DNA of 64,000 bases from positions 2,976,001 to 3,040,000 of the forward strand of contig OZ234493.1 of NCBI GenBank assembly GCA_965153455.1, read 5' to 3'. Below are positions 23,601-64,000 of this stretch, one piece after another; the stretch's first letter is position 1; every line of letters starts with the position of its first letter. The notes beneath the pieces were generated by a model, which did not search any database, was not told the DNA's origin, and saw only the letters and a list, made by a program, of their open reading frames with translations. A program made the position numbers and the translations under genes. The stretch is from Sphagnum compactum (Eukaryota).

Positions 23601-26600
23601 CACTTATCACAGGGGAAATTATATAATAGTTACATCCTGCAATGGGTCCTTATATCATGTTTGCATCCAATGCTACAACTTAACATGGAATTCCAAGTAG
23701 TGGGACATATTGATACATTAAATAAATGCACAATGTTTTCGAAAAAAATCCACCAATAACAATAACCCCATGAAATTCATGTTAAGAATTCAAAGTACAT
23801 TGCCATTAAAGAAAGATGAAAAGAAAAAAGGCAAAATATCAAATAAAATATTCAAGGATTTAAACAATAGTAGAAATACAATAATGCAAACCTACCAATG
23901 ATTGTTCCTTGAGGTCCAATTTTTTTTCTTCCAAAGGTTTTGGGTGTGTTTGACTAATGTTTTTCATGTTTTGTTTGAAGTCAATAATTTTTCCACATCC
24001 TTGATTTCCTCCCTTAATGTAGGCCTTGTGGAAGGATCAAAATCTTTAAACATCTAAGGGTCTACTTCCAATTTTGCGATCCCAAGATTCACAAAATCAA
24101 GTTTTCCTACCCTTTCGAACCTGTAATTACATTTCGATTTGTCTATTGGAAAAGCTTTGGCAATGAACACAATGAACCTAAACTTTTGATGCTATGATTT
24201 TTCTTAGGCACAACAACAATTGCCCAATTGACATTATGTTTTTTATATTCTACAACTTATCCTTCATTTTGTTTTGTTCAAAATGTGTATATGTAACCAT
24301 CAATTTTTCAAGTGAGACACCTAATTGGTAAGGAACCAAGCATAAATATTTTCTAAAAAATGAAATAACTATACTACTAACTGATGGTTTAAAGAAACAA
24401 AAAAAATACTTAAATTTCATTTTGTTGAAGAATAAGATGTGAAGGTTACTTTTTTTAAAAATCCACCCCAACATTAGTTGTTACTTGCATAAAGGTGCAA
24501 ATTAAATGCTTTCCTATTGGGTGAAAACACGGTTAGAGGAACCAAAGTTGCCAAGGTAAAAGTCTTTTTCCAAGACTACACATGACATGTCATTTTGTTG
24601 TTGGTTTGTAACTTAAAAATTTGTATTTTGAGTAGCCTTTTAACACTACATTTTAGAGATAAATGCATTTGGACTACAAATTGATTTTGTACTATGTATG
24701 TTATGCATTCATGCCTTCTATCACATAAACATGAACAACTTTTGTTAAAAGCACATTTTCAAAATTCATAATTTTCAGGGTCAAAAACATTTTTGAGCCA
24801 AATGTGTTCAAATTGGTTATTAAAAATAAAAATAAAAATTCAAGTTCTTTTGCCCCTCTAATCATCAATGTTGAAATTCTCTCCAATTTTAAGAAGGATC
24901 GGTGCACATTTGGTAGATGAAAAGGATGTTTTAAAAAAACAAGGATTGTCCACTTTCGAAGTTTGAGTGCTTTGAACATGCAAAACATTTTTGATTTGTG
25001 TCAAGTTTTGAGAATTTAAACTTTGCAATTAATGGAAAATATTTCCAAAAAAATATGACAATCCAAACTATTATGCTTCACTTGTGCTTTTTCAAACATA
25101 CAAAAGTGCAATTTTAAAGAGTGTCCAGTCACTTGTGTGGTTCCTTTGATTGTGTTTTTACCCTATTGTAAGCCAATTCATGCTTTTGTGCTTTTGAACA
25201 ATGATATGCATATACAAAACTTTAATGTTGCATCATTGGTTAGCATCCCAAGTTCTTTAACATTATGTAACATGTTTTAAAAATTTGTCTAAATAGTTAA
25301 GAAAATAATTTTAGAAATGCTATTAAAGTTAAATCCAAATGTGGCCAAAGTAGTTCAAGTTATATTTCAAAATTTTCCAATTTGTTCCAGAAAAAAGAGA
25401 AATATTGTGACAAAATATTCCCTTTTATATTTTTTTTGCATTTTTGATAAATTTTCACACAAAAAGAATCATTTATGAACACCTGTTCAAATGAATTCAT
25501 GAAATTTAAGCACAAATTGACTAGATTTCTAAAGCAATTTGGATATGCCAAATTTCATGGGGATTTGAAATTCAACACTTTTAGTGAAAGAGTAATAAAA
25601 TGACTTGCTTATGAATTTTGACAAATTTTATGTGAAATACGTGTATATTATAAATGTTTAAAGTTTGCAAACTATTATTATATTTTTCATCCAAAGCTTC
25701 TAACCTACTACTTAGGTAGTTGTGTTTCACTTCATGGTTGTTCCTTTGTGAAAACTGACCACAAAGGTCCCACATATCACATTCTTATAAAGATGATATA
25801 TATACATAAAGAATTGACCTACATACAATATACTTTGTTAAAAGGGTGGAAAAGTAGATAATGAAAGATTACCCATGTTAGAAGCAATGTTTTCCTTTTA
25901 AATTTAGTGATGTTCCTCAAATGGCAATCATCCATAAGTATATTTAACCAAATATATTAAAACTATAAAATATTTCTTAAAAAGAATTGAAAAGTCCCCA
26001 TTTACATGTTTAGAAAAGGCAAAACAAGGTGAAAACTTCATAAAGTCATAGAAACTCCAAGAAACTTGGATAGACAAAACTTAAAACAAAGGACCATAAA
26101 ACAAATACAAAATAGGGACAATTTTTTTTAAAAATACACTTACAATATGAACAATAGCACCAATTGCACACCTATTTAGGGACCATCTATAATAATATAC
26201 ATATGCATGTACGATAGTGATTTCTCTATATTAACATCCAAATTGACTTCATTTGCTCCTTATGTTAGTGGGTAAAAACTATTGTAAACATTAATTTATA
26301 CATTGAATTTATATGCAAATGAAGCAATGGGAAGACTCAACCATGTTATTGGCTGAAGCCTAACAACAAACAATAAGACAAGGTGAAAACACATTACATG
26401 AAAGACAAAGAAAATGATAGCAAGGGATAACATTTAGACCAAGAGTAAACTTATAAGATGTTCCCAAATTACAAGACTTTATATAGATCATCATTCGAAA
26501 TGTTCCAAATGCTGAAATTCAAAAAATAATTTCTTTATTAAACAACCCTTTAATCCTCTTTAACATAATCTTATAAAAGTTTTTATTTTATAAGACAAAT

Positions 26601-27433
26601 ATTGACTCTCTGAGGGACAAAAAAGTCTTTTTTAAAAACTTGTATTTCAATTTGATTATTGATAACTCCAAACTTCAAAATCATAAAGACTTTGGAATGA
26701 AATTGAGGCATACAAATCATGTCAATATTTGCTCAACTCAAGATATTTTTAGATGTATGCCATTGCCAAAGAGTCTTGGTTTTAGTGCATAAATCTTTTA
26801 AATTTTGAAAAATGAAGAAAGATGAAAAAATGAAAACAAGATGATCCATAAATCTACAAACAAGAGGGGATCTATGAAGCACAACGAAACAAGTCTTTTT
26901 CTTGAAATGACGGTGGAAAAAACCAAATTCATAGGAAGAGATGTATCATAAGTAATAACCATGGGGATAATATGAAAGTAGCAAAAATGGCAAATGTTTT
27001 CATAGAAACAAGGAATTTTTGACAAAATTTTCCTTTTCCAAATTATTTTCTGTAAAATGATAAAAATTCACCACAAAAAAAATCATTGCCACAAGGTAGA
27101 TTACATCAATGACCTTACCTACCATTGATAATTAGTAACTATATTGTAAAAATATTTAATTGTTCCAAAAAATGCATCCAATAGCATAAGTTGAAATATT
27201 TCAAAATTTTGATAAATGCATAAAAATATATGTATACATGGTTCCTTAAACATTTTCAATATATAGTGGTAATCAATCTTTTGAACTATTTTCCATGCTC
27301 AATACATCCAATATTCAATTCTTTGAAGAAATCCAATATGGTTAAATTGAAAATATATATATATATTCCCAACACACCCTTTTTCGAATTATTTAATACC
27401 AAACATTAGTAACAAATGTGGTAATGTGTGAAA

Positions 27434-28213
27434 AGGTGAAAGCACACTATGGGGGTCAACTTGGGCACTTTCACAACATGTATAACAAATATACACCTTC
27501 AAAATGTGTTTTGTTTAATTTTGGGTTTCATTTTGCTATTTGGGCTTTATATTTTGATTTTCACAAAGTTCATGTTATTTAATATTATATGAAAAAAAGA
27601 AATAAATTTAAAACATTAAGTTGAAAGAATAACTGGTATATTTACGTAACAAAACATAATAAAACCCTTTTTTTTGTTTTAGATTGCACTAGTTTTTGCT
27701 TGAATTAGGCAGTCAAAAACATTTGAACTAGAATTCTCATAAAAATAGTCCACCTCACAATTTTTTGTCATATTCCATTTAAAAATGATTGTCAAAATTT
27801 AGTTTATCACATTCTTATAGTCATTGCCTAAAAAAAACTCATTTGTGATATCATAGTTATCAAACCCTTCACATAACTCACAAACCTATTCCAATCATAT
27901 GGGATCACAATCAAAATAAAAACTAGAAATTTATAAATATTAAAAATCATTTCAAGTATTTATTAAATATATATATATATTTTTCAATACACTATGACAT
28001 ACATATTTTTTGCACAACTATATTCTAACATTACATCATATAAAATAAAAATATATAATTTCTTTGTGTTTTAGCTTATCGTAATCTGTAAAAACATTAT
28101 AATTTATTTTTTCATTCATATTGAAATGATTGACCTGCAAACATGGGTACCTTTAAAAAATAAAATAAAATACAACGTGACAACAAATTTGACCCCCTAT
28201 TGTGCTTCCACCT
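27434..28213. mobile_element. Putative MITE (~780 bp) with ~30-45-bp imperfect TIRs
   Basis: aggtgaaagcacactatgggggtcaa ... ttgaccccctattgtgcttccacct, with an AT-rich non-coding interior. Confidence 0.5.
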
Positions 28214-48477: not shown

Positions 48478-48896
48478 TGGACAAAGAAAAGGAATCACAC
48501 TACAAAGCTTAATCTTGCTAAAAACTATACTAAAATGGATTAGTGACTCAAAACTAGTTCCTATAGAGAGATGGATCAATGATTCTGAGATGATCTAATG
48601 GGAACTTGCGATGTGCTTATATGCACATGGAGGATCGCTCAAAGATAAGGCTAGTAACTGCTAGTAGGTGGAAATAGTTGCCATGCAACAAGGGTAATCC
48701 AGAATAAAGTGCACATGGGTGTTTAATTAATGCATTAATGAAAGTGTAACGAATTCAATTCGGTGCACATGCCACCATTTCTGATTTATTGTGATAGCGT
48801 GGAAATGAATGAGACTACTAAAATTAACTCGAACGCTAATTTGTCGCTACTGTTTAGTGCTCCCATTAAAGTAGCTTGACTACATGCTACCTACAC
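48478..48896 (-). mobile_element. Probable 3' LTR of the minus-strand Copia element
   Basis: Removing the Gypsy insertion joins this segment to the Copia RNase H end: AAAATGAGAG|TGTAGG...TATAA...TGTCCA (PPT-like tract, TG...CA). Confidence 0.55.
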
Positions 48897-49235
48897 TGTC
48901 ATGACCATATGTGTGTTAGCTATAACATATAGTGTGATATGGTAGCGAGTAGTGCCTACTTAGGCTTTCTAGGTTTAGGGTTAGAGGAGAGTGGTTGTTC
49001 TGGTAGGACCCACCCTCATGTTGTGAGTGGGGGTATAAAGTGTGTGAGAGGGCTCAAAGAACATAGTTCTTTGAGTTGAACCTAGAGCGTTGGGAGTAGT
49101 TGGAATTAGTGGAGCTTTGAGCTATGGTGTCCCGTTAGCATCAACTTAGATTCTCTGAGTGGAGTGGGCTTGGCTTGACTATATGTTTTTGCATCACGAG
49201 TTTTATGATAGTAGATCTTTCTCGTGACGTTTTCA
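48897..49235 (+). repeat. LTR segment A1 (333 bp + TTTTCA), with TATA box at 49034
   Basis: Matches 58955-59293 with roughly 22 mismatches by eye; TGTCATGA...TC(A/G)TGAC(A/G). Confidence 0.92.
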
Positions 49236-49251
49236 CTCAAAGAACTATGTT
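49235..49251 (+). promoter_or_regulatory. Primer-binding site complementary to the element's own LTR (49060-49076); putative self-priming PBS
   Basis: ACTCAAAGAACTATGTT is the exact reverse complement of AACATAGTTCTTTGAGT; there is no TGG tRNA-type PBS. Confidence 0.75.
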
Positions 49252-50231
49252 TTTTGGGAGTAGTTAAACCGTGGGGGTTTTGTGATCTCACTCTCTGGTT
49301 GTGTGGTCGAATTGGGAGTGGGTGGTGTCAAAAGGAGCGCCTTGGCGAGAGCTTTTCAACGCACCAAAGATTGTTGGATTTCGTTGAACGGATCAAAAGT
49401 TATGATCATTTGAAGTTGCTAGTTTAGGGTTTGACAGTTTTTGTTGACGGTTTACCAGCGACGTTAATTTCTCAGATAAGTGGAAATTTCCTTGAAGAAA
49501 GTTGCTGAAAATTGGTAGGAGTGTAGCTAGAGAGCCGATCTACAATCTAGCAAAGACAGATTGTGTTTTCATTGAGCGGTTTATGCGTTATGTTTGTTTT
49601 TGTGGTGATGGTTTTTTCTGGTTTGTGCACACCTAGTGCGGAAGCGTTGTCGGATTTTTAACTAAATAACTAGGGAAGATCATGTGCTGCAATTTTGTAA
49701 AGTTGTTGCTTGAGGGCTGAATTGCATTTGGGAATTGTTTGGGATTTTTTTGGTGGAGCCAATTGAGAGTATTGACCTTCGAAAGATCTCAAGTTTGTGT
49801 AGATTTATGCCCAGGTTTCTTTCAACGGTTTTTCGTAGGTCATATCTTGGCACACAAACCTTCTTTTCAGTTGAGTTTTGGAGGGAAGGAAAATCTAGTT
49901 GTCCTCTACATTCTGGTCGAAGTAAATTGGCATTTGGTGTAGGAACGGTGGAGATATGGTTGTTTGAATGTTCGCAACCCAATTTCGCAAGTTTTGGTTA
50001 TGGCGGATTAGGGATTTCGCCGGAAATTGAGCTTTTGGCTAGTGGGGAGCACATTTTTCGACTTGTTGTGGTGGGCCGGTTGGATGAGTTGAGCCGCTAC
50101 TCAACTAAGTGGTTGAGTTGAGTATTCATTTCTGGTAGCAAATCGAGCATAAGGTCGACGATATTTAGTGGTGATTCAATTTGGGTACTGGGTTTGGTGA
50201 TTGGGTCATCACGGAGTAGTTTGGTGGTCCT

Positions 50232-52630
50232 ATGGGGGACCATGGTGGAGATGGTGGAGTTAAATGTAGTGGGTTGAGGTATCGACTACCTTCCCCCACA
50301 TCATCGGTTGTTGAAGAGGATGAAGTTATCGTGAATAACAAGTCTTCCATATTACCGTCTAGTATTGCGGCCCCATTGATTTGGGATATGGACAGGGGTT
50401 CTGGGGCCATGAAGGGCCCCCAACGTTACTCAGGTGCAGTGGGCACCATCGAGTTGGAGGACTTCATTCAGGAGTTTGATTCTTGGTGTGATATGCAGAT
50501 GTTACATAACGCCAGATTGTTCTCACCCTTCTTGGCATGGAAGGGATTGTTTCAGCACTTGGAGGGTCCTCCGATGGATGATTATCATGAGTTTCGGAGA
50601 GATCATGCTACTGAGATTGAGGAGTGGAGGCAGCATTGGTCTCCATCCTATGTATCTATTACTCACGGTGGTGTTGTTAGTGGTGATACTACTACACCGT
50701 CTACTCCTAGTACGAGCACACAGGTTGTTCCCCCACCTCCGTTTAACCCTATCACGGAGTTCTTTTTGAGGCTGAAGAAGAACTACCAGGGGGTGAAGAC
50801 GGAGAAGTTGAAGAGTCTTCAGGAATTTGAGCGGAAGACTAGTGAGAGTCTTCACGAGGCATACACTCGTATGCGACGGTTGATTGTAGTTACCCAGGGG
50901 GTGACGGAGGCTCAAGCAGTCCAATTTTGGTATGGGATTCTGGACAAGGAGTTGCGACGGAGAGCACGCGATGTGACTCTCATGAGTGACGATTCTCCCA
51001 CATTGGCCCATGTGTTTGCTTTGTCTGAGAAGATAGAGCTTAACATGGTGGAGGAGAGGGTGGTGACATCTGGATTCAATAGGGATATAGTTACTACTTC
51101 TCGTGGACAACAGTCCACCTCACAACCTCATACTGGTGGAGGTGGGAGTCGTGGAGGTCAGGTACGACCTCAATCAGGTTCTGGAGGGACGAGTGCACAA
51201 AGACCGTTGCCTTCATTCGCTAGTCAACAGCAGGGACAATCTTGTTGGACATGTGGTGGTGCTCATATTTGGAGGGATTGTCCACAGGAGAGTGGTGGGC
51301 GGACTTTGGCTGATGGATTTTAATCTGCACAAGTTCAATGTGATAACTGTGGCCGGGTCGGCCACCCTCGTGAACATTGTTTTGACCTTTACCCATAATT
51401 GAGATTAGGTCGTGGTGGAGCGACTCAAAGAGGTCGTGGTGGTAGAGGTGGTAAAGGTGGTGGGGGTGGTAGAGGTACACCGACGGTTAGGGCACCTCTC
51501 GTGATCACTCCTCCCCCTACGACAGAGGCAGCTATGGCTGCTAGGATTAAGCAGTTGGAGCAAAGGTTTGCTACCATGGCAAGTTTCCAGCATCGATCAC
51601 ATTCAAGAAGTGAGGCTCCCACATCTTATGGGGGAGATGATCTCTTTTATATGGCTAGTGTAGCACAAATTGAGGCGTCCGTTGCAGTGACGAGAAGCGT
51701 CACTCGAGCCTCGGAGCCACGTGGGGCAACTATGGAGTTGGATCCACAGAGGGATGAAGCTGGTAGACAGGCCAGGCTTCCCCAATCATTCTTGTTGTCT
51801 GAAGTGGTTAGGACTCCTTCCATGGTTCCTACACCGCCTATTGAGCCAACAGTGGGGCCAACAGCATCGACATCACATGTAGTGGACACGGATGTATCAT
51901 CGAGTGCAGTCTCGCGGATGGTGACTTCAATGTTGGGATCCCCAACATTTTCGGCTAATGATTTGATGGCGTCAGGAGTTGACTTAACTCGTGTATTTCG
52001 ACTAGCAGCCATATTGTGTGAACGTGGGAGTGTTGTTGCTATAAGTGCCGAGGTGTGTGAGGGTGTTGATGTGGGGCAACTTGTGGCGGGGGATGTTGTT
52101 GTGGAGCAACTCGTGGTATCAGGTGTGGATAGTCCTTGGCAGGCGACGGCGGCTAAGATGGATGCATTACCAGCTCGACCGGCCATTGATCGTGAGAGGC
52201 TTACACCTGGTGTATGTATGTTGGATAATCGAAGTGGTATTTTCTGGTTGGTGAGTCCTACGGGCCAGGTGTATAGACCAGATCGGGTTTTGTTGGATTT
52301 TGGTGCCGAACCCTTGATGTTGGGGAAGGCAGCATGTATTGGTTTGGGTATTCGGAGGTCAGAGCTTGAGTCGTGCCCATTCCAAATTCAGACATCACTT
52401 GGTGGAGCTAGTGATAGGTCTAACTTCATGACACGTGAGAAATTGTCGGTGCAAATGAAACCTGATCATGTGACAGATAGTTCTAGGTTGGGAGTGACTG
52501 CTGTTATTACAACAGCTGAGTCGTATGATGTACTAGTTGGAGGTGTCGTGTTGTATCCAATGGGTTTTCAGATGGATTATTAGACAGAGACAACGACTTA
52601 TCGACCCGGTTGGCAGTCTGGGGATGGACG
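50232..52630 (+). pseudogene. Gag (two zinc knuckles, RGG-rich) plus retropepsin-like protease of the Gypsy element
   Basis: One frame broken by single stops. Motifs: QxxxESLxxxxxR-like gag motif, CWTCGGAHIWRDC, CDNCGRVGHPREHC (51339-51380), VLLDFGA...YDVLVG. Confidence 0.8.
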
Positions 52631-53019
52631 GATGAGCCAGGTGCGTGTGAGATTTATTTCTGGGGTTCGACCAGGAGGGTCTCCCCCAGAGGTGTTGGCA
52701 TCAGTTCCTGGTTTTAGTGGAGTGGTCACTTGGCCAGGTGACTTGTTGGAGGGCAACATTTCAACCATTGACACTTCGGTTTACGAGGATATAGAGGAGG
52801 TTTCTAGTTTTGTTGCAGTAGTGTCCTCCTCATTGGATGTTCCACTTTGGTGTTCGAATGGGGTGTTACGGCAGGATGTCGATCGTTTGGTATCACAAGC
52901 TTGGCGTGAGGCTTTTGTGCATGTGGAGGAGGAGGAGGTTCCACAACGGACTCCTATTTCTGGTCCTGTTGGGTTGTCTCCATTGGATACTACACCCATT
53001 GCGTGGGAATATCCTTCCG

Positions 53020-53975
53020 AGGGTATTTACGTGTTGGATCTATTTGGTGGGATCAGCACTGGTTTGGCAACAGTGCTTCAAGCAAGTATTCTAGTTCGGA
53101 AGTACCTTTACGTGGAGATAAATGAGACCGCGAGGAGGGTTTCATCGCGCCATCTTGCATTATGATGCAGTGATATCCTGAGTTGTTGCCAAGGTCGATT
53201 ATTCGAGGATATCAGCGGGCTTTGCCATCAAACATTGCATTGTTGGGGGCTCAAGACCTTGCGAGAGTTGGTCCTATTAATTTGGTGATTGCTAGATGGC
53301 CATGCTAGGGTCATACTCGGGCTGGTCGTGGTGAGGGATTACGTGACCCTCGATCTCGTATGTTTTGGGAGATGTTGCGCCATCTTCAGACACATCAGGC
53401 ACGTGTTCCCACGTACATTCTGGAGAATGTACCTTTGTTGGGTGATACTAGGTCTCATGTGATGGCAAGTGTACACCAAATCCGGTCTTGGATTGGACCA
53501 GCGGTTTTATTGGATGCAGCGAGGGTTGGTTCGCGTGCTCATCGTCCCCGATTGTCGTGGACGAACTTGTTGCCGAGGGAGGTGTTGAAACGGGCATATG
53601 AGACAATACCACAATCTTCTCACCTCATAGTGGATAGTATCTTAGATATCGGGCGACGTTCTCAGGTGGTGAAAGTTGTTGGTAGGTCACCCATGGCAGT
53701 GGTGAACCGAATGGGACAGCCTAGGATGGCGTTACCCACATTTGTTAGTTTTCCAGCATCACATGCCTGTAGAGAGGGTGGTCCCGGGCTTGTATGGGAT
53801 AGTTGTTTGCAGCAATTGGTGGAGCCCAACGCCGATGAAAGAGAGCGTGCAATGGGGTTTCCTACAGGAGTGACATTTGTCCCTTCTATTTCCGAGGCTT
53901 CACGTCGACAAGTGTTGGGTCAAGCTATGGACCTGAATTGTTTGACTTGGATTGTTAGCCTTGGTATGGCTGAGT
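53020..53975 (+). pseudogene. DNMT3-like DNA (cytosine-5) methyltransferase domain inside pol
   Basis: Motif I VLDLFGGISTG (53031), II YLYVEIN, IV LVIARWPC*G (Cys at 53303), VI ILENV, VIII AHRPRLSWTNL, IX ERERAMGFP, X RRQVLGQAMD; one frameshift (~53162) and two stops. Confidence 0.9.
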
Positions 53976-54299
53976 AGCGTCGGCTCTAAGCCACATTTGT
54001 AGTAGTTACACCTCTTGTGAGCTCGCTGTCCACTGTGACGGTAGAAGCATCGACTAGGGGCGAGGAGAGTTGTACTTTTCATCCTTGGAGTACATGGGAT
54101 GTGTTGGGAGAGCATGTGAAGGTTGTGGCCCATGCTGTTGGAAGAGTTTGTTGCTCCATTGGTGTTCCATTGGGTGACTTGGAGGAGCGTGTGGCTATTC
54201 CCAAGGTTTTTGCATAGCAACCTATGGCGTCGTCCTCTTCCTTTAATGTGTCTATCGAAGAGACTTGGGAGCCTTTGATGGGGCCCAAGCTAACAAGAG

Positions 54300-56726
54300 G
54301 AGAGAGGCGACGGTTGATGCAATTCCTAAGAGCTTACAGGAGTTGTTTTGCCTTTAGTATGAAAGAGTTGGGTGCTTTGATTGAACCTGGTATACGGATT
54401 GAGTTGGCTAGTGACACGCCAATCTTCCGTCGTCCTTATAGATATAGTGATATGGAGAGGGTCCTGATTCGGAGTCGGACGTTTTTCTATTGGAGGTTGG
54501 ATTAGTGGAATTGTTGCATGGTGAGTATGCATCAGCCACTGTCATGCCTACCAAAAAGGATGTACATGGCAACTACACGAATAGGCGGATGTGTGGAGAC
54601 TAACGTCTTATCAATCGGCAGACTAAGTCCGATAAGTATGCCATGCCTACACCTGAAGAAATCTTTAATGTTGTGGGACATGCGAAGGTTTTTAGTACAC
54701 TTGATCTTCGAGCAGGGTACCATCAATTGCCGATTTGAGAGGAGGACAAGGCCAAGACCGCATTTTGGGGCGTCAACTCTCACGGCAAGGATTGTTTGTA
54801 TCAGTGGAAGTTCTTACCCTTTGGGTTGAAAAACGCGCCTGCCGAGTTTCAACGTGTGATGGATAGGATCTTAGCAGGGTTGGATTTTTCCAGTGTTATA
54901 TCGATGATATTGTGTAGTGATACCGTGGAAGAGCACCAAATTCATCTACAAATTGTGTTTGAGCGGCTGAAGGCTCATGGTCTTCGTCTACATCCTGGGA
55001 AGTGTAAGTTCTTCCAAGAGAGTGTGGAGTATCTGGGTCATGTGATCTACCCAGGTGGTTTGGGAATGCAACAAGCCAAGGTGGAGGCTATTGCACATAT
55101 TCTGCATCCCACGGATGTGAGTAGGGTTCGTGTTTTCATGGGATTGACGAACTACTATCGCAGGTATGTCAAAGGCTTTAGTGCGATGGCAAAGCCTTTG
55201 AACATGTTGAAGTTGGATCAGGAGTGGCAGTGGGGTGATGAGCAGGAGCGAGCTTTTGTGGAGCTCAAGGCTAGGTTAGTTGCAGCTCCCATCTTGAGGA
55301 GGCCTATTAGGGGGCGTTCATTCCAGCTACACACTGATTGGAGTATGTTGGGACTTGGAGCAGTGTTGACACAGTGTGATGATGAAGGGAAGCAGTTTGT
55401 GGTGGGCCGGTTGGACGAATTGAGCCGCTACTCAGCTAGGTGGTTGAGTTGAGTATTCGTTTCTGGTAGCAAATCGGGCACGAGGTCGACGGTATTTAGT
55501 GGTGATTCAATTTGGGTACTGGGTTTGGTGATTGGGTCATCACGGAGTAGTTTGGTGGTCTTATGGGGGACCATGGTGGAGATGGTGGAATTACACGTAG
55601 TGGGTTGAGGTATCGACTACCTTCCCCCACATCATCGGTTGTTGAAGAGGATGAGGTTATTTGAGTGAAAATGTCATGAGAAAGATCTACTATCATAAAA
55701 CTCGTGATGCAAACACATACAGTCAAGCCAAGCCCACTCCACCCAGAGAATCTAGGCCGATGCTAACGGGACACCATAGCTCGAAGCTCCACTAACTCCT
55801 ATTCCCAACACTCTAGGCTCAACTCAAAGAACTATGTTCTTTGAGCCCTCTCTCACACTTTATAGCCCCACTCACAACATGAGGGTGGGTCTTACCAGAA
55901 GAGCCACTCTCCTCTAACCCTAAACCTAGAAACCCTAAGTAGGCACTACTCGCTACCATAGCACACTATATGTTATAGCTAACACACATATGGTCATGAC
56001 AGCTGTCGTGCGAATACATATCGTCATACAACATACATCGCTGACATACCATACTCACATACACACACAAACACATAACATGGACGAAAGCATACACAAA
56101 TACATGTGTACCACATGTGATGGCAAAGCCTTTGAACATGTTGTTGAAGTTGGATCAGGAATGGCAGTGGGGTGATGAGCAGGAGCGAACTCTTGTGGAG
56201 CTCAAGGCTAGGTTAGTTGCAGCTCCCATCTTGAGGAGGCCTATTAGGGGGCGTCCATTCAAGCTACACACTGATTGGAGTCTGTTGGGACTTGGAGCGG
56301 TGTTGACACAGTGTGATGATGAAGGGAAGGAGTTTGTGGTGGCCTATGCAAGTCGTTCGAACAATGTAGCGAAGTCACGTTATAGTTCTTACAAGGGAGA
56401 GTGTTTGGCAGCGGTGTGGGCTGTTGCACACTTCAGGTGTTACTTGTTTGGCACACAGTTTACCCTTGTCATTGATCACCAGCCGCTCAAGTGGTTGATG
56501 GAGTCCGATAAACTTACAGGAAAGCTTGCACGGTGGGCTCTCATCTTACAGGAGTATGACTTCCAGGTGGTGCATAAACCTGGAGTTACAAACCTTGATG
56601 CCGATGGGTTGAGTCGGAACCCATACACTAGCCAGGAAGATAATACTGGAGCTAGATGGCATGGCGAGGTTGATGAGGAGATGGTGCCAGGTTGGCATGC
56701 ATCGGCCTTTTTGTGCTTGTTGGGTG
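54300..56726 (+). pseudogene. Reverse transcriptase and RNase H of the Gypsy element, interrupted by an internal rearrangement (55397-56115)
   Basis: RRPYR, YAMP, FSTLDLRAGYHQ, LPFGLKNAPAEFQR, YIDD (54897), KCKF..YLGH, LHTDWS..GLGAVLTQ, AYASR, DHQPL, ADGLSR. Confidence 0.93.
55666..56115 (-). repeat. Inverted complete LTR (B-GC-A-TTTTCA), followed on its own strand by the first bases of the PBS
   Basis: Reverse complement of 58841-59293; begins exactly at TGTGG. Confidence 0.9.
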
Positions 56727-57134
56727 ATCTAATTAAGTTTGATCACATCACAATATGCAAACACCCTAATCAAAAGTTTGATATGTCATGACGAGCATCT
56801 AATCCAAATGCATTTAAGAAAGCTTTTGTCCAAAGTCCTACATATTCCAATGTGCATGACCAAAATCATGGTTCATCTTTTCCATCTTCTTTTTCTCTCT
56901 TTTGGAAACATGATCTTTTGATTTGATTGTTAGTAATGGAGCTTGCGGAGCTTTGGGCACCATTTGAGATTGTTAGCTTGAAATCTAAAACCTTTGTAAA
57001 AAAAGCTATAGGCAATGGATCTTGCAACAACAAGCTCTCTCACAACTACCACAAGTTGTTTTGAAGCAAAAACAATTATTTAAGACCTTGCATTTGTTGC
57101 AAAACAACACTGCAAACCCCTAAACCCAACCCCA
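56727..57134. other. AT-rich foreign insertion between RNase H and integrase
   Basis: Abrupt composition shift that breaks the pol frame; ends in aaacccctaaacccaacccc. Confidence 0.6.
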
Positions 57135-57425
57135 GGACTCTAGTATGGAGGGCCACGTGACATCTTACTCTAGTCAAAGGGTAGATGGCCAGTTTTCAGA
57201 TCCTGAGGTTGGGGATGGTAGCATCGGTCACCATGATGTTCATGATGATAAATAGTGTTGGAGTTTTTACAAACCAGTATGGTGTCAGGCATGGTGAGTG
57301 CTAAGGAGAGAGACCGTGTTCTCCAACGAGCTAAGAGGTATCGGTTGGAGGGGACACATATACTCCGAGTGTGGGAGGATGGTAGGGTACGGACTGTACC
57401 ACATCCAGACTAGAGAAGGCGTATT

Positions 57426-58685
57426 GTGCGGCATGCCCATGAGGAGTTGGGGCATTTTGGAGTAAAGCGGACATATAGCTTACTCCTAGGTCAGTATTGG
57501 TGGCGCGGTATGCACACCGATGTGCAACGATTAGTGTCACATTGCATGGTTTGTGATAGGGTGAGGGCATCGTTCAATGCCCCTACACCACAGTTACACC
57601 CCTTGCCTATTATGGGGTTGGGTTATCGCTGGAGTTTGGACTTTGCGAGACCATTACCATTGACGGTACGGCACAACAAATATGTGTTGGTGATGGTGGA
57701 GCACTTCTCCAAGTGGATTGAGTTGGTGCCATCCCCTGACAAATCCAGCAAGGGAGTAGCGTATGCATTCCTTGATAGGTTGCTTAGTCATTTTGGTGCA
57801 CCAGCTGAAGTGTTGACCGATCAAGGTACGAAGTTTCAGGGTGAGTTTCAGGTCTTGTGTGACAAGGCGTTGATTGATCACCGAACCACGTCTCGAGATC
57901 ATCCAGAGGCAGATGGTTTAGCTGAGCGTGTGGTACAAACGGTGAAAAGGGCATTACGCAAATATGGCTTGCAGAAAGGCCACCTAGGGGATTGGGATAT
58001 TCAATCACCATGGTTGGCCATGGGATATCGATTCAATCGTCAGGCATCCTTGGCTTCCTTCTCACCTTATTTTCTATTGTACGGCCGAGATCCAGACTTG
58101 CCAACAACGATTCGTCGTGAGTCTAGTGAGGTGGTGAACCTTGATGACCCGAAAATGTGGTTGAGGGTGTGTTCTCAACGTGCAGAGCTCTTTCGAAGAG
58201 TTATGCCAGCAGCGTTTGAAAACCTTGCCATTGCTCAACATAGGGATACATTGCGATATGCGATTATCCGGGGTGGAGGTTATGGACCATCGATCCGTGG
58301 GTTCCATGTGGGGGACTATGTCTATTTGCAGCAGACTGCACCAACGACATTGGATGTAACGGCAGGCCGCACTATCTTACGAGTGCGAGAGGTGTTAGCT
58401 TCTGGAGTTCTCATGTTGGAGGGTCACGATGGTGTTGTTTGGAAGGACCATGTGTGTAATTGTGCGCCATGTCACCTCCCAAATGTGGATGGTACAGTTG
58501 ACCCAAGTTTGGTAATGGTACGGGTCGGCTTGAGGTGTATGTTATGTGGGTCTAAAGGTGGAGCAGCCCATATGTTGGTGTGTGATAGATGTTCTAGGGG
58601 TTGGCACATGGCATGCATGACTCCACCTATGGATGTTGTTCCCGTTGGACGGTGGGTTTGTCGTCGTTGTACTTTGGAGGGGTAG
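57426..58685 (+). CDS. Gypsy DDE integrase (HHCC, core, SH3-like) with a C-terminal PHD finger (58536-58670); open fragment of a dead polyprotein
   Basis: HEELGHFG...CMVC; WSLDF, LTDQG, GLAER; FHVGDYVYL; CMLC...CDRC...WHMAC...WVCRRC (C4HC3). Confidence 0.9.
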   Translation: MRHAHEELGHFGVKRTYSLLLGQYWWRGMHTDVQRLVSHCMVCDRVRASFNAPTPQLHPLPIMGLGYRWSLDFARPLPLTVRHNKYVLVMVEHFSKWIELVPSPDKSSKGVAYAFLDRLLSHFGAPAEVLTDQGTKFQGEFQVLCDKALIDHRTTSRDHPEADGLAERVVQTVKRALRKYGLQKGHLGDWDIQSPWLAMGYRFNRQASLASFSPYFLLYGRDPDLPTTIRRESSEVVNLDDPKMWLRVCSQRAELFRRVMPAAFENLAIAQHRDTLRYAIIRGGGYGPSIRGFHVGDYVYLQQTAPTTLDVTAGRTILRVREVLASGVLMLEGHDGVVWKDHVCNCAPCHLPNVDGTVDPSLVMVRVGLRCMLCGSKGGAAHMLVCDRCSRGWHMACMTPPMDVVPVGRWVCRRCTLEG

Positions 58686-58840
58686 ATGACATGGTATGGA
58701 TTACAGATGGGCGACTAACGATGGGGCAACATAGCACCCGGCCTTTTGATTCGTGCACCCGCGAAGGTGTATAACATGTAGAAGATGTATAGGGCTACCT
58801 GGAAGTTAGAGGGACCTAACCACCAGCTAGGGGGGCAAGT

Positions 58841-59407
58841 TGTGGTACACATGTATTTGTGTATGCTCTCGTCCATGTTATGTGTTTATGTGTGTATGTG
58901 AGTATGGTATGTCAGCGATGTATGTTGTATGACGATATGTATTCGCACGACAGCTGTCATGACCATATGTGTGTTAGCTATAACATATAGTGTGCTATGG
59001 TAGCAAGTAGTGCCTACTTAGGGTTTCTAGGTTTAGGGTTAGAGGAGAGTGGCTCTTATGGTAGGACCCACCCTTATGTTGTGAATGGGGGTATAAAGTG
59101 TGAGAGAGGGCTCAAAGAACATAGTTCTTTGAGTTGAGCCTAGAGCGTTGGGAGTAATTAGAATTAGTGGAGCTTCGAGCTATGGTGTCCCGTTAGCATC
59201 GGCCTAGATTCTCTGGGTGGAGTGGGCTTGGCTTGACTTTATGTGTTTGCATCACGAGTTTTATGAAAGTAGATCTTTCTCATGACATTTTCAGTTGTGG
59301 TACACATGTATTTGTGTATGCTCTCGTCCATGTTATGTGTTTGTGTGTGTATGTGAGTATGGTATGTCAACGATGTATGTTGTATGACGATATGTATTCG
59401 CACGATA
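58841..59407 (+). repeat. 3' repeats: PPT, B1 (58841-58952), GC, A2 (58955-59293), GT, B2 (59296-59407)
   Basis: Polypurine tract AGGGGGGCAA-GT just before TGTGGTACAC; B is repeated after A. Confidence 0.9.
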
Positions 59408-59410
59408 ACA

Positions 59411-62400
59411 CTCTCATTTTGTCAAGGTACTCTTGAAGAATCAAGCCTAGGAGTTGTTACATGCACTTGAAGTGCTTTGGTGCAAGAACAGGCTTTGTTA
59501 GGGCATCAGTGTCCATGTCTAATGTGGAACAATTTTGAAAAGAGACTTCTTTTGCATTCATCATCTCCCTGACAAAGTGGTGTTGTATGTCCATATGTTT
59601 AGTTCGCTTGTGGTGAACAAGGTTTTTGATTAATGCTAGATTTCCTTGGTTGTCATTAAAGGTTATTGTAGCATCCTTTGTGGAAAACCCAACTCCTATA
59701 GCAACTTTCTAAGCCACATGGCTTCTTTAGTGGCAAATGAAGCTACCATGTATTATGTTTTCATCGATGAGAGGGCCACAATTGGTTGCTTCTTACTCAC
59801 CCAATTTACAACTCCCAGTACAAATGCAAACCAAGTTGTGGACTTCCTAAAGTCTAAATCTCCACCCCAATATGATTCTGAAAAACCCTTGAAGGTTATT
59901 CCCTCTTCATCTCCTCAATATTGTAACCACAAATCTTGCGTTCTTTGAAGGTATTGAAAGATTCTCTTGGCAGCTACCTAGTGTTTTCTAAAGGGGTCTA
60001 ACATGAATTGACTAATTATGCTCATTGATTTAGAAAAATATGGTTTAGTAGCAACCATTACATACATAAGGTTACCCACAAGTTCCTTGTATGGCATGTC
60101 CATCATCTCTTAGATTTCCTATAAGGTTTTTGGTGTAATATTTTTGCCCAGTTTACTAATGGTTTCTAAAAGCGTCACTATTACAAAAGTGGAGTGTAAT
60201 TCACTAGCCTAAATCACTATTGGACCTTAAAAATGAAATAAGCTCACTGCACTTTAGTGATTTCACCTTGGTTAAAGTTATTTCATATCACATTGTGTTT
60301 CATTATTGATTGACATTATTCACTATTATAATTTACTGTGATAAATAAATTTATTTTTATGTTATTGTTTTGAATACCTTGTGTTATTTTATGATATACC
60401 TTATATTATTTTAAGTTATTTTAGTTATTCTAACTTATACTCTAACTTATTATAAGTTATTATAGGCTATAATAAATTATTATACCTTAAACTATTATAC
60501 ATTATTATACTTTAAGGTATCCTAGTTAGTTTATTATAAAAATTTTACTTCAAATTATTTTAAATTAAATTATTCAACTAACCTTAGGCTATACCTTAAA
60601 TTATTTTATTTTAAATTAATATATGTTATTTCAAATTATAATTTATGTTATTATAAAGTATTTTATCCTAAGTATAACAATTTCAAATAATCTAAAATAT
60701 AATATAATGACCTAAGGTAAAATAACCAAAAATAACCACCAATATAATAACCATCAATAAAATATATAAGCACTAATAAAATAGTCACTAATAGCCACTA
60801 ATAGAATAACCAACAATAGCTGCAAAACCAATAGTCATAAATAGTTTATGTTAATATAGCCTAAAATAACCAATAATAGCATAAGGTGAAAAAACTTTCA
60901 ATAGCAAAAAACAACCAACAATAACTCTACATAGCCAAAAATAGCCTAAGATGAAATAGCTTAGAATAGCCAAAAATAACTTGGAATAACTGCAAATAAC
61001 CTAAAGTGAAATAGCCTATAATAGCAAAAAATAACATCAAAAGTAACTTACAATATTCAGATATAATCTAAGGTTTAATAGCTTAAAATAGTCCAAAATA
61101 ACATAAAATAACCAAAAATAACTAAAGGTGAAATAACTAAAAATAATTAAAAATAACTAATAATAACCATAAACAGTTGTGAGATAACTTAGAATAATGA
61201 AAAGTAACCCTAAAATAGTTGAAAGTAGCTTAACATAGGTAGTATTATTATATTAGCAAAAACATTTATCCATTTATTAAACATTTTGTTTTTCAAAAAA
61301 AAATTCATTGAAATGTTATTGAATAATGATTTTCACAAAAAAAAATTGTGCAAATGATTTTACATTTTTAAAAGGAAATAAATGTAATTATGTACATTAT
61401 TGAAAAAAAAATTAAATTAAACTTTAATCATTTCATTTGGACAAAATCTAAATAAGATATGAATTTTCAAAGTTTATGTTTTTGTAATGTTTAAAATGAA
61501 ATATTTGATAAATAGAACGCAGCATAACACATTATCACAATAATTGTGGTGCCTTGATTGTAGGGGTGTTTGCCTTCATCCTAGAGGTCAAAAGATCAAA
61601 CCTCACAAATGGTGTATTTATGGTCAATAATGATAAGTTGACCAAATATTTTCCTATGTAGTTCCCTAAAGTAGGTGCCTAGTTAAATTGATTACATGGC
61701 CTATGTACCTAGGCTAAATTTTAAACCTAGCATAGGTAATGACACATGTCAATAATTCATAGGATGAAAATCATAAAAATATCAATAATATTAAATATAA
61801 CACTAAGTATTAAATCATTTAAATTTAATTGATATCCATGCTACTTAGTTAATTAACTAGCAAGTAAAATGGTTTGATAAATTTGTATTTCACTAGGTGT
61901 TAGTGGACTAATTCACTGTCTTTGACAACTAGTCTTCATCCAATTGGGGGTTGACCAATTTCACCCTGGTAAAAATGTCCAAATTCGCTCAAAATCTAAT
62001 GAAACCTAAAATGAACTAAAATGCATTTTGTTGTAGAGTGTAGACATAGGTTTACAACTTTCCATGCCGAACCACTTAAAAATTTTGTTGATGTATTTTG
62101 GCTGACCAAGCTTAATGGTTCTACGCTACTAATCTCTCGTTACTTAGATCCCAAGAAAAAATGCAAGATCCCCTAAGTCTTTCATTTTAAACTCCTGTGA
62201 CAGAAATGTTTTCACTCTTTCAACTGTTGCGATCTCCTAGTTAAAAATCAATAAGTCATCTATGTATAATGCTAAGAATGATGACTCTTGGTTTTTCAAG
62301 TAATAAATACTAGGATTTGTTTGACATTTTTTGAATCCTAGATTGAAAAGGAAAAAATCCATTGTTTCACTCCTTTTGGTTTTTTCTAGAACAAAATCTT

Positions 62401-64000
62401 TTTGTGTGAAGTAATGCCTACTTCTTCATTGAAGACCAGATCAACTTGGAGGTCTCCTTGTTGACCAATTTGTACATTTTAAAGTTCTAGTCATAACCTA
62501 CAAGGATGTATCTTATGCTCTTTGAATCCAATTTCGTTTTGGTCTAACTGGGTCTATGAATGTAAGGGTCACAACCAAAAACTCATAAATAATTCACTAT
62601 AGGTTTTCTCCCATTCCAAAGTTTTTCAAATGTTATTCCTTGAATTGCTTTGTGGGGAGATCCAGCCTTTAAATATGTGGTCATTACAACTTTTGCCTAG
62701 TATATCGGTTCCAAATTGCATTGGTGAAACATGCAGTGTGTTATTTCAATAATTGTGTGATTTAGTCGTTTGGCCATTCCATTTTTTTGGGGTGTGTATG
62801 GTGTTGATTTAATGCTAAATTTTGTTCAATTTCAAAAATGCTTGGAATTCTTACGACAAGAATTCACCTTTGTTTTCACTTCTCAAGATCTTGATCTTTT
62901 TTCCAGTCTATCTTTCTATGAGCACCTTGAACTCTTGGAATTTTGAAAAGCATTCTCCCTTGCTCTCCAAAATGTAAATGAAATATTTATGAAAGTAATC
63001 ATCTATGAAAGATACAAAGTATCTTGTTCTGCCAAAAGATGGAGTTTTAGCTAGTGCCCAAACATTGGTGTGAATTAATTCCAACATTTTTTTTGCACGC
63101 AACCTTCCTTCTTTCAAGGAATGTTTCCCTGTGTTGCTTGCCTTAAACACACCTTTGACAAATATTGAGCTTTGCTCCCTTGTCAATGTTAATGCCTTCC
63201 ACGAGGTTACTTTCTGACAACATCTTCACATTTTCTACACCTAGATGCCCCAATCGCTCATGCCATAGCTAGATATTATTTGATTCCTTAGAAATAATTA
63301 AACCTTTGACTATCTCTGTTGACTTTGTCTCACATTGTAGTCAATATAAACCATTTTCTTTCAAACCAAGTCCAATTACTTTCTTTTGTTTGTTCATGGT
63401 GACACACCTTTTTCCTCCAAATTCAAAAACATGGCCCAATGAAGTTTGCTTTTGTTACAGAGAAAAGTTTTGTTGCCAATCTAGGGACGTGCAAGACATT
63501 AGAAAGGACAACGTCAACAATTTCATTTCCTCCCACTAACATGGATACCTTTATATCTCCTCTACCAATAGCTTTTTAAGCAAAATTATCGCCCATGTAG
63601 ATTTCGATGGGTGAAATTGATTCATAATTTTTGAACCAGATTCGTTCATGAAATAGATGTGCAAATGGATTAAAATCTATGTTCCACACTATGGATCCAC
63701 ATGAAACAGACAAAGAAAACACAAAGGCTTCCTAGTATCTTCATTTCCTACTTCAACTATATTATTTTGCTCTCCTCTCCTCTTGGAATCAGCTGTTTTC
63801 TTTTTACTTTCCCTTGCCCAATGCCCAACTTCCTTATAGTAGTTACAAATGTCTCTTGACTTGTTTCTACTAACTTAGGACTCTAACCCTTTTTGAGTTA
63901 ATACAAGTGCAGTTTTGGTCAACAACTTAGAGGACCTAGACTTCTCTTTTCTCATCAATTCCTCATTCAACAAGCTAGTTGCTATGACCTCCCAAGTAAA
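59411..64000 (-). mobile_element. Degenerate Ty1/Copia retrotransposon (gag zinc knuckle, pre-integrase, integrase, RT, RNase H), running off the window edge
   Basis: CNYYKEVGHWARE (~63830), LWHERLGHL (~63255), LELIHTNVW...YFVSFIDDY, HKRTKHMDIQHHFVRE...DALTKP. Confidence 0.9.
60175..62120. mobile_element. AT-rich non-autonomous insertion(s) in the Copia RT
   Basis: Interrupts the RT. Starts CACTATTACAAAA. Arrays of TTATTTT-type units flip to AAAATAA-type units near 60700. Confidence 0.5.

Follow-up and report, generated by a model that had tools for sequence, protein, structure and literature searches.

To our knowledge, priming of reverse transcription by an element's own RNA has been proven for Tf1 only; it has been inferred for the relatives of Tf1, and the plant cases rest on sequence predictions. 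In Tf1 and Tf2 of Schizosaccharomyces pombe, members of the sushi group, the primer-binding site (PBS) lies right after the 5′ repeat and is complementary to the predicted first nucleotides of the RNA, the core of the Tf1 pairing being 11 nucleotides (nt). Here we analyse a retrotransposon with a PBS of the same kind in Sphagnum compactum. It lies in a stretch of 64,000 nt (assembly GCA_965153455.1, contig OZ234493.1, positions 2,976,001 to 3,040,000), which we call the window and in which all positions are counted from the first letter. Judged by its sequence, the element is a member of a high-copy Sphagnum Ty3/Gypsy family with the order gag-protease (PR)-DNMT3-like-reverse transcriptase (RT)-RNase H (RH)-integrase-PHD. 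We consider it probable, with moderate confidence, that its PBS at 49235 is the minus-strand primer site and that the element primes itself with its own RNA, as Tf1 does.

In every feature that can be read from sequence the element appears to work like Tf1. It has no site for a transfer RNA (tRNA) 3′ end, the predicted fold encloses the repeated and 5′-unique segments (R-U5), and the complementary core is ~12 nt long. It differs from the Tf1/sushi elements in having a PHD finger rather than a chromodomain, a DNMT3-like domain in pol and split direct repeats, and its cleavage and start are predicted only. Unlike in Tf1/sushi, the primer sequence here is half of a hairpin, the other arm of which lies just upstream of the predicted start. 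An earlier reading of this stretch made from the letters alone (the sequence-only reading) had invoked the self-priming of Gypsy elements of the Tf1/sushi type. The self-complementary PBS agrees with this, but given a PHD finger and no chromodomain in Pfam, membership of the chromovirus group is not supported.

That Tf1/sushi elements self-prime, as the same reading had stated, is confirmed in the main text of a survey of plant elements (PMC6317226, Neumann 2019), where self-priming is predicted for 12% of the elements surveyed, namely the moss and club-moss chromoviruses of the Tcn1 clade and the TAR lineage of Ty1/copia. With Tcn1 the Sphagnum family shares a bryophyte host, the Ty3/Gypsy affiliation and self-priming predicted from the PBS. 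According to that text 95% of the Tcn1 elements carry a chromodomain with an aromatic cage, and the words Sphagnum, Marchantia, methyltransferase and PHD do not occur in it.

Two further systems resemble the element in other respects. KnitGypsy-Dnmt3 of the charophyte Klebsormidium nitens has a Gypsy pol with an inserted Dnmt3-like domain, and the legend to Fig. 4 of its description (PMC5890265, de Mendoza et al. 2018) gives it the repeat structure of a DIRS element together with Gypsy-like domains. The Sphagnum family likewise has a Dnmt3-like C5 methyltransferase domain inside pol (PF00145, E 7.1e-9); its host is a moss instead of a charophyte. Section 9 and the Fig. 4 legend of that paper contain no analysis of PBS, primer or integration. 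The Ngaro/PAT elements of the DIRS order have split direct repeats arranged as A1-[ORFs]-B1A2B2 (ORF, open reading frame) and a tyrosine recombinase instead of an rve integrase, as set out in the relevant passages of PMC8547959 and PMC4157794. The layout in Sphagnum is the same, with a long repeat L as A and a short repeat S as B, and the B1/A2 junction holds both element ends side by side; the Sphagnum family differs in having an rve integrase, TG...CA-type ends and 4-bp target duplications. At the level of titles and abstracts, the literature on split repeats with an integrase, on bryophyte DNMT/PHD Gypsy elements and on Sphagnum long terminal repeat (LTR) retrotransposons gave no description of the family or of its layout.

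Complementarity of the PBS and the predicted RNA start

The features at the 5′ end of the element are as follows.

49034-49039, + strand: TATAAA box, by direct reading
49053-49075, + strand: hairpin CTCAAAGAAC-ATA-GTTCTTTGAG, straddling the predicted RNA start, from an inverted-repeat scan
49065-49076, + strand: predicted self-primer, the opening ~12 nt of the element's transcript, complement of the PBS core; the start may lie as far up as 49060
49235-49246, + strand: PBS core ACTCAAAGAACT, pairing with 49065-49076
49247, + strand: hypervariable base, A to C in 11/30 and A to T in 5/30 independent rows of the family alignment
49247-49258, + strand: PBS extension, which repeats the hairpin loop and 5′ arm in inverted form, save for two wobble changes
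49060-49076 (-), 49235-49251 (+), 55822-55838 (+) and 59118-59134 (-): sites of the PBS 17-mer, from a search of the window

The 17 nt at 49235-49251 (ACTCAAAGAACTATGTT) are the exact reverse complement of 49060-49076, as can be read directly. The target starts 26 nt past the first T of the TATAAA box (49034), and the pairing continues for about 7 nt, 49053-49059 with 49252-49258. By eye the full duplex joins 49053-49076 to 49235-49258 in 24 pairs, of which two are G:U (49059:49252 and 49054:49257). In all these respects the sequence-only reading was correct. Its placing of the PBS at the boundary of repeat and leader also stands as to position, with the correction that 49235 is the last base of the repeat and the PBS overlaps the repeat by 1 nt. 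The longest inverted-repeat pair found by a scan of 48880-50300 has the arms 49055-49076 and 49235-49256 (22 nt, 95%). A search of the 64-kb window for the 17-mer, allowing up to three mismatches, gave four sites, all exact and all within copies of repeat L, where 0.50 were expected by chance; none of 100 shuffles reached four. The sites are the targets in the 5′, 3′ and inverted third copies of L, plus the PBS itself.

There is no TGG-type tRNA site, again as had been claimed: the 19 nt past the repeat end are free of TGG. The first TGG past the repeat is at 49255-49257, and is presumably not trailed by anything like the complement of a tRNA T arm. An Rfam scan of 48800-49600 with E up to 10 returned no tRNA-like or other real match. 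Its mir-218 and STnc380 hits were discarded as chance-level, lying far under the gathering scores. ARAGORN found no tRNA genes in the window or in 80 further loci of the family, which is no test of a tRNA primer.

Transcription likely starts at 49060-49065, with A49065 as the best guess. This base is favoured because it lies 31 nt past the TATA box and at a pyrimidine-purine step, in keeping with the general rules for the distance from TATA to start and for the initiator. The box itself reads TATAAA, or TATAG with a 2-nt deletion, throughout a 37-row alignment of the family. For RNAs running from 49050, 49060 or 49065 to 49290, the minimum-energy and centroid predictions agree in joining the 5′ end to the PBS, with z-scores of −4.1, −2.9 and −1.8, respectively. 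This duplex dominates the predicted folding of the element's 5′ RNA.

The arms of the hairpin, 49053-49062 and 49066-49075, are each 10 nt long and 100% complementary, and enclose the loop ATA. The hairpin is the same in all three copies of the repeat, the third being inverted at ~55666-56001, which agrees with the sequence-only reading. The suggestion that it competes with PBS pairing would hold only for a transcription start upstream of ~49053, and otherwise fails. Directly upstream of the hairpin in L there is a second polypurine run, GAGAGAGGG, at 49044-49052.

The complementary sequences in the family

How well is the complementarity kept in other copies? A profile of 14 gag proteins led to 80 loci in moss metagenome contigs, 36 of which cover 49025-49300 in one piece. 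With the window copy these form an alignment of 37 rows, 35 of them distinct. Pairs of loci with the same flanks were counted as one insertion, leaving 30 independent rows, and two rows shifted by the aligner were corrected by eye in the 33-copy counts made at the PBS core and at 49247. The complementarity is conserved: the majority consensus of the 36 further copies keeps both partners, and within the consensus PBS and its partner a majority base is lacking at 49247 only. In the four helices of the R:PBS duplex 79-95% of the cells are paired. The PBS core is exact in 18 of 33 independent copies; of the others, most differ at one or two positions, largely through transitions, and a single copy is degenerate. 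The core is paired at 11 or more of its 12 positions in 24 of the 37 rows, and the hairpin has been lost by deletion in four. The copies are mostly decayed, with transitions in 468 cells and transversions in 143.

The sequence-only reading had treated the pairing of 17 to 24 nt as a unit, and this has to be given up. The 12 nt of 49235-49246 behave as constrained, while the next pair, 49064:49247, fails to match in 15 of 31 scored rows, which argues that the family can do without the full 17-nt match seen in the window copy. Position 49247 is the top transversion column of the alignment (16 of 30 independent rows, against six for the runner-up), and in the 33 independent copies it is A in 15, C in 12 and T in 6. 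Moreover, the break points of an insertion subfamily and of a rearrangement fall at or beside 49246/49247. The subfamily has a ~69-nt insert exactly after 49246, composed of three related units of ~20 nt (locus L040:4257-4340), and loose ends at 49246/49252 in the DNA runs X2 and X7 match an insert of this type.

Beyond the boundary, the T run within 49247-49258 varies in length among copies, and 49252-49258 carries the same two wobble differences from the complement of the hairpin 5′ arm in nearly all of them. Retroelements that copy their primer all renew the PBS from it with every cycle. The two family-wide wobble differences thus imply that the extension is not regenerated from the primer, and that the primer would not extend upstream of ~49060; taken with the boundary, rewriting would put the 5′ end of the primer between 49060 and 49065. 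The extension is probably a relic of a fold-back event and not part of the primer site. A constrained primer part of ~12 nt with a start near 49065 fits self-priming of the Tf1 kind. That the C found at 49247 in about one-third of copies is a base added by reverse transcriptase opposite the cap is a speculation.

Some copies are rearranged in this region. In L066:1140-1180 R-U5 is deleted exactly between two direct repeats of CTCAAAGAAC, one in the hairpin 5′ arm and one in the PBS. In L046:8724-8990 and L059:6345-6610 the inverted 3′ internal end, with polypurine tract and S, replaces L and is joined to TTTTCA and the PBS; the inverted end of S supplies a left terminus of the TGTC type.

Covariation between PBS and R, for which the sequence-only reading had called, is seen as a switch between A:U and G:C at 49063:49248, a pair that is A:U in 19 rows, G:C in seven, G:U in two and something else in three. 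In pair counting none of 500 shuffles reaches the observed paired percentage and covariation score. We do not take this as strong proof: the structure came from one member of the alignment, the rows are closely related to each other, and there is ~1 informative event, confounded by CpG. A tree of 29 rows (~1.1 kb with the paired sites masked, FastTree, midpoint root, without support values) gives G:C to the older lineages and A:U to one younger clade and the isolated copy L018, or about one event in a master lineage plus one dead copy (L018). Both positions are CpG in the G:C form, and two CpG decays have a 1-in-2 chance of a compensatory outcome. The dead copies L061, L074, L065 and L031 show single, non-compensatory decays at this pair.

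Split direct repeats, the inverted block and a proposed path of replication

The repeats and related features of the window copy are as follows.

48893-48896, no strand: left 4-bp target-site duplication ACAC, the same bases as at 59408-59411
48897-49235, + strand: 5′ repeat L (A1), 339 nt, beginning TGTCATGA and ending TCATGACA+TTTTCA, from repeat comparison
55656-56115, - strand: inverted block of S, GC, L and the first 10 nt of the PBS, from repeat comparison
58829-58839, + strand: polypurine tract AGGGGGGCAAG, directly upstream of S, by direct reading
58841-58952, + strand: first copy of the short repeat S (B1), 112 nt, from repeat comparison
58949-58958, no strand: perfect 10-nt palindrome GACAGCTGTC at the S/L junction, made of the right element end, GC and the left element end
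58955-59293, + strand: 3′ copy of L (A2) with the same TATA box, hairpin and primer sequence (59118-59134), from repeat comparison
59296-59407, + strand: second copy of S (B2), the right element end, ...CGATA here and ...GACA in relatives
59408-59411, no strand: right 4-bp target-site duplication ACAC, directly after the last S

The sequence-only reading took 48897-49235 for a plain LTR. The integrated copies read L-internal-S-L-S instead, and the LTR as formed by reverse transcription is S+L, ~453 nt. In the window copy the order is L - internal - polypurine tract - S - GC - L - G - S, the 5′ L being 94% identical to 58954-59253 over 300 nt and the first S 98% identical to 59293-59405 over 113 nt. 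All five complete copies have this order together with a 4-bp target-site duplication. These are the window copy, with ACAC, and four loci; the duplications in the loci read CATA (L019/L064), TCTC (L029), AATC (L039) and AATG (L032, whose left end is damaged). Each of 34 5′ copies of L examined begins at the equivalent of 48897 and adjoins unrelated flanking sequence, and none is preceded by S. The element ends are TGTC...GACA, and so of the TG...CA type. The polypurine tract is kept in 14 of 14 loci printed, with one or two C/T and A/G changes. Since this tract precedes S and the PBS follows L, reverse transcription by its usual rules should yield an LTR of S+L; the L/S junction then resembles one between two LTRs. 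As a source of the permuted copies, a two-LTR circle opened at random at one or other of its palindromes was considered and rejected, the alternative product, with S directly upstream of the PBS-proximal L, being found in 0 of 34.

Seven loci (L007, L013, L035, L052, L060, L069 and L079) end in S followed by flank, giving L-internal-S. The three of these with both ends have 4-bp target-site duplications (L007 ATGT, L013 TGTT, L035 TACA). This form could be due to deletion between the two copies of S, to collapse in short-read assembly, or to a second integration product. In L007 (8700-8760; 14259-14380) L has been cut down to TGTCA + TTTTCA. The sequence of S (58841-58952) is rich in TGTA/TATG motifs, which we take to recall the upstream elements of plant polyadenylation signals, and S might act as a terminator for transcripts that read through the 3′ L.

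The inverted block is part of a rearrangement of 736 nt (55406-56141) situated in the RT/RNase H region. A stretch of 201 nt is duplicated on its two sides (55205-55405 = 56142-56342), and the rearrangement consists of a copy of 50066-50329 followed by the block. The block begins at the first TG of S and breaks inside the PBS core with 3-4 nt of microhomology. With an S+L LTR and a short primer, plus-strand strong-stop DNA would be expected to end as the block does, and the rearrangement looks like the product of a template switch that captured such DNA. The PBS copy in the block, CTCAAATAAC, has G to T at the position that pairs with 49069. The complementary change, C to A at 49069, is carried by three independent insertions in their 5′ L (L019/L064, L076 and L047/L048) and by none of eight other copies of L that were read (six 3′ copies in loci and two in the window). 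The block's own R start is canonical. There is one private transversion in the 348 L columns of the block, so a random hit at the site pairing with 49069 has a chance of ~1 in 1000. This is the pattern that self-priming predicts, with the PBS copied from the 5′ R of the parent and the R start from its 3′ L; a constant primer acting in trans would not be expected to give it.

We propose that replication would proceed as follows. Transcription would start in L ~30 nt past TATAAA, and the first ~12 nt of the RNA (AGUUCUUUGAGU) would fold back over ~160 nt of R-U5 to pair with ACUCAAAGAACU at 49235-49246. RNase H would cut the RNA after the duplex, and the freed 3′ end would be extended through U5-R. 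On copying the RNA primer, the plus strand would rewrite the PBS from it, which would keep the two sequences complementary and make the base past the capped 5′ end, 49247, error-prone. The LTR of reverse transcription would be S+L, bounded at S by the polypurine tract and at L by the PBS. Integration would use the internal inverted-repeat ends TGTC...GACA, by which genomic copies would become permuted to L-internal-S-L-S.

A broader version of this scheme is offered tentatively, and we doubt that it holds in full. It would apply to a bryophyte-wide, possibly streptophyte-wide, Gypsy-DNMT3-PHD lineage that makes its minus strand from a capped primer of ~12 nt of its own RNA. The integrase would use the palindrome GACA-GC-TGTC inside S+L as its end pair, making each new copy a defined circular permutation (L...S-L-S), a DDE-integrase counterpart of the split repeats of Ngaro/DIRS, and the C at 49247 would be a footprint of cap reading. 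Such a scheme would be one not described for DDE-integrase elements.

What else might account for the complementarity? The primer could act in trans, as an internal piece of a host tRNA, of the sort used by copia and by plant elements with half-tRNA primers, or another small RNA ending ...AGUUCUUUGAG(U), with the R hairpin matching the PBS for another reason such as masking or primer mimicry. The PBS core is short at 12 nt, and half-tRNA priming is known in plants, although the sites reported in the main text of the plant survey are in Ty1/copia lineages only (PMC6317226). Such a primer would have to end in ...GAG(U) instead of CCA, and the sequence by itself thus excludes the 3′ end of a mature tRNA. 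A second coincidence would be needed as well, in the match of 12-24 nt to the element's own predicted RNA start, and the PBS copy in the inverted block carries a variant complementary to an R variant of the family, not a constant primer sequence. We regard a trans primer as unlikely. Rather less probable, in our view, is a stem with a structural role only, in packaging, dimerisation, translation control or strand transfer, where priming would take another route, perhaps tied to the DIRS/Ngaro-like layout. Such a role would suit the dominance of the stem in the predicted fold and the nature of the hairpin and PBS region as near-palindromic copies, which could form kissing or extended duplexes. 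The repeat layout does differ from that of a plain LTR element, and the primer of DIRS-1 is stated as not known in the part of PMC7192593 that deals with it. Yet the site is exactly at the position of a minus-strand primer, on the last base of L, with the polypurine tract at the matching place before S; the ends of the inverted block are those of plus-strand strong-stop DNA as set by polypurine tract and PBS; and the hot spot at 49247 would be left unexplained.

Least probable of all, and in our judgement very unlikely, is that the match is a relic without present function, inherited from a fold-back or template switch that copied the hairpin in inverted form beside the repeat end. The segment 49236-49258 is indeed an inverted copy of the whole hairpin with two transitions, and the family has undergone rearrangements at the palindrome (the deletion in L066, the inverted joins in L046 and L059 and the inverted block of the window). 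Against this, a retrotransposon with thousands of copies needs a primer site exactly here, where there is no other candidate, and the change at 49246/49247 argues that the first 12 nt are treated differently. A relic fits the extension 49247-49258, but not the core. Priming by the element's own RNA is therefore the reading that we retain from the sequence-only account, on the basis of the complementarity, the position at the boundary, the family consensus, the dominant fold and the absence of a tRNA-3′-end site; the extent of 17-24 nt, the plain LTR and the Tf1/sushi membership are not retained with it.

A number of observations weigh against self-priming. All the relatives with DNA belong to one family at 83-93% identity, so that the comparison is confined to that family: three viral_contigs scans, with gag, integrase-PHD and the DNMT ORF, gave no more distant relatives with DNA, and a tblastn search of the loci and the window with five proteins of the element gave either the same family or unrelated Gypsy elements at 30-38% identity. 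The core (49065-49076 with 49235-49246) is fully paired, with G:U allowed, in only 15 of 37 rows, and its conservation is not above that of the neighbouring repeat sequence, as a relic would have it. The frequent mismatch of 49064:49247 is hard to reconcile with a primer of 17 nt, or else with a PBS that is rewritten efficiently, and the covariation lends self-priming weak support. The copies with C to A at 49069 keep G in their own PBS, and the argument from the block is post hoc, two of the three possible changes at that position matching some R variant. Lastly, the RNA data are contigs of a single metatranscriptome run (X15), which cannot show RNA ends and may include DNA. Relative to the DNA runs, depth in X15 rises ~3-fold from the bin 49039-49065 to the bins from 49066, two contigs stop at 49099, and two of eight listed pieces span the L/PBS boundary with at least 31 nt on each side; none of this was used as evidence.

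Self-priming as such is not a new mechanism. What is new is, first, the element that carries it: this Gypsy-DNMT3-PHD family lacks a chromodomain and combines split direct repeats with a DDE integrase and target duplications. New as well are the internal footprints that narrow the primer to ~12 nt. Here the prediction is backed from within the family by the 12-nt boundary, the hot spot at the presumed capped end and the strong-stop-like fossil. In Sphagnum, a keystone genus of peatlands, this family ranks with the most abundant repeats, and it encodes its own DNMT3-like enzyme and a PHD reader, so that the way its replication starts and is completed bears on the spread of such elements. The permuted layout with a DDE integrase links the LTR and DIRS/Ngaro orders, which are usually kept apart, and the Sphagnum family may inform on the primer of DIRS/Ngaro elements.

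Coding domains and abundance

ORFs were taken from stop to stop on the + strand, and seven were included in a Pfam scan.

50220-51323, + strand: gag-like ORF with a CCHC knuckle, 67 homologues
51399-52583, + strand: region without a Pfam match, probably protease from the position of the ORF
52584-53977, + strand: DNMT3-like cytosine-5 DNA methyltransferase domain in pol, in two pieces and broken here (PF00145, E 9.6e-4)
54739-55452, + strand: C-terminal part of the reverse transcriptase and start of RNase H (RVT_1, E 8.8e-18)
56045-56791, + strand: RNase H (RT_RNaseH, E 2.6e-34)
57414-58685, + strand: integrase (H2C2 zinc domain and rve core) with a C-terminal PHD finger (E 6.2e-16, 5.2e-13 and 1.3e-9)

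The pol order of PR-RT-RNase H-integrase with a CCHC gag upstream (ORFs 50220-58685, the protease region being without a Pfam match) is that of Ty3/Gypsy, but the integrated copy departs from the type in lacking two identical long terminal repeats at its ends. Several of the 67 gag homologues are annotated as retrotransposon gag/CCHC proteins. The named gag relatives occur in Sphagnum fallax, S. tenellum, S. balticum and S. jensenii at up to ~90% identity, and in the liverworts Marchantia polymorpha and Calypogeia fissa at 40-73%.

The DNMT3-like domain is located between the protease region and the reverse transcriptase, and is open in some loci (L019:12377-13777; L001:12668-14014). In the L001 ORF the match to PF00145, at E 7.1e-9, is above the cut-off. 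All 29 solved-structure matches of the L019 methyltransferase ORF are DNMT3A, 3B or 3C, the best with E 4e-8.

In the integrase ORF (57414-58685) the Pfam scan reported a PHD finger (E 1.3e-9) and no chromodomain, and none of the seven ORFs scanned matched a tyrosine recombinase. The PHD finger (58530-58685) is at the end of the integrase, where chromoviruses have their chromodomain, and this suggests a different chromatin-reading module for targeting.

The repeat is present in public sequencing runs that include moss metagenomes. Summing the contig depth across it gives values in the thousands for two DNA runs, and the family is therefore highly repeated. The flanking DNA (20001-28000 and 60001-64000) has a G+C content of 0.28-0.30, compared with 0.45-0.49 for the element.

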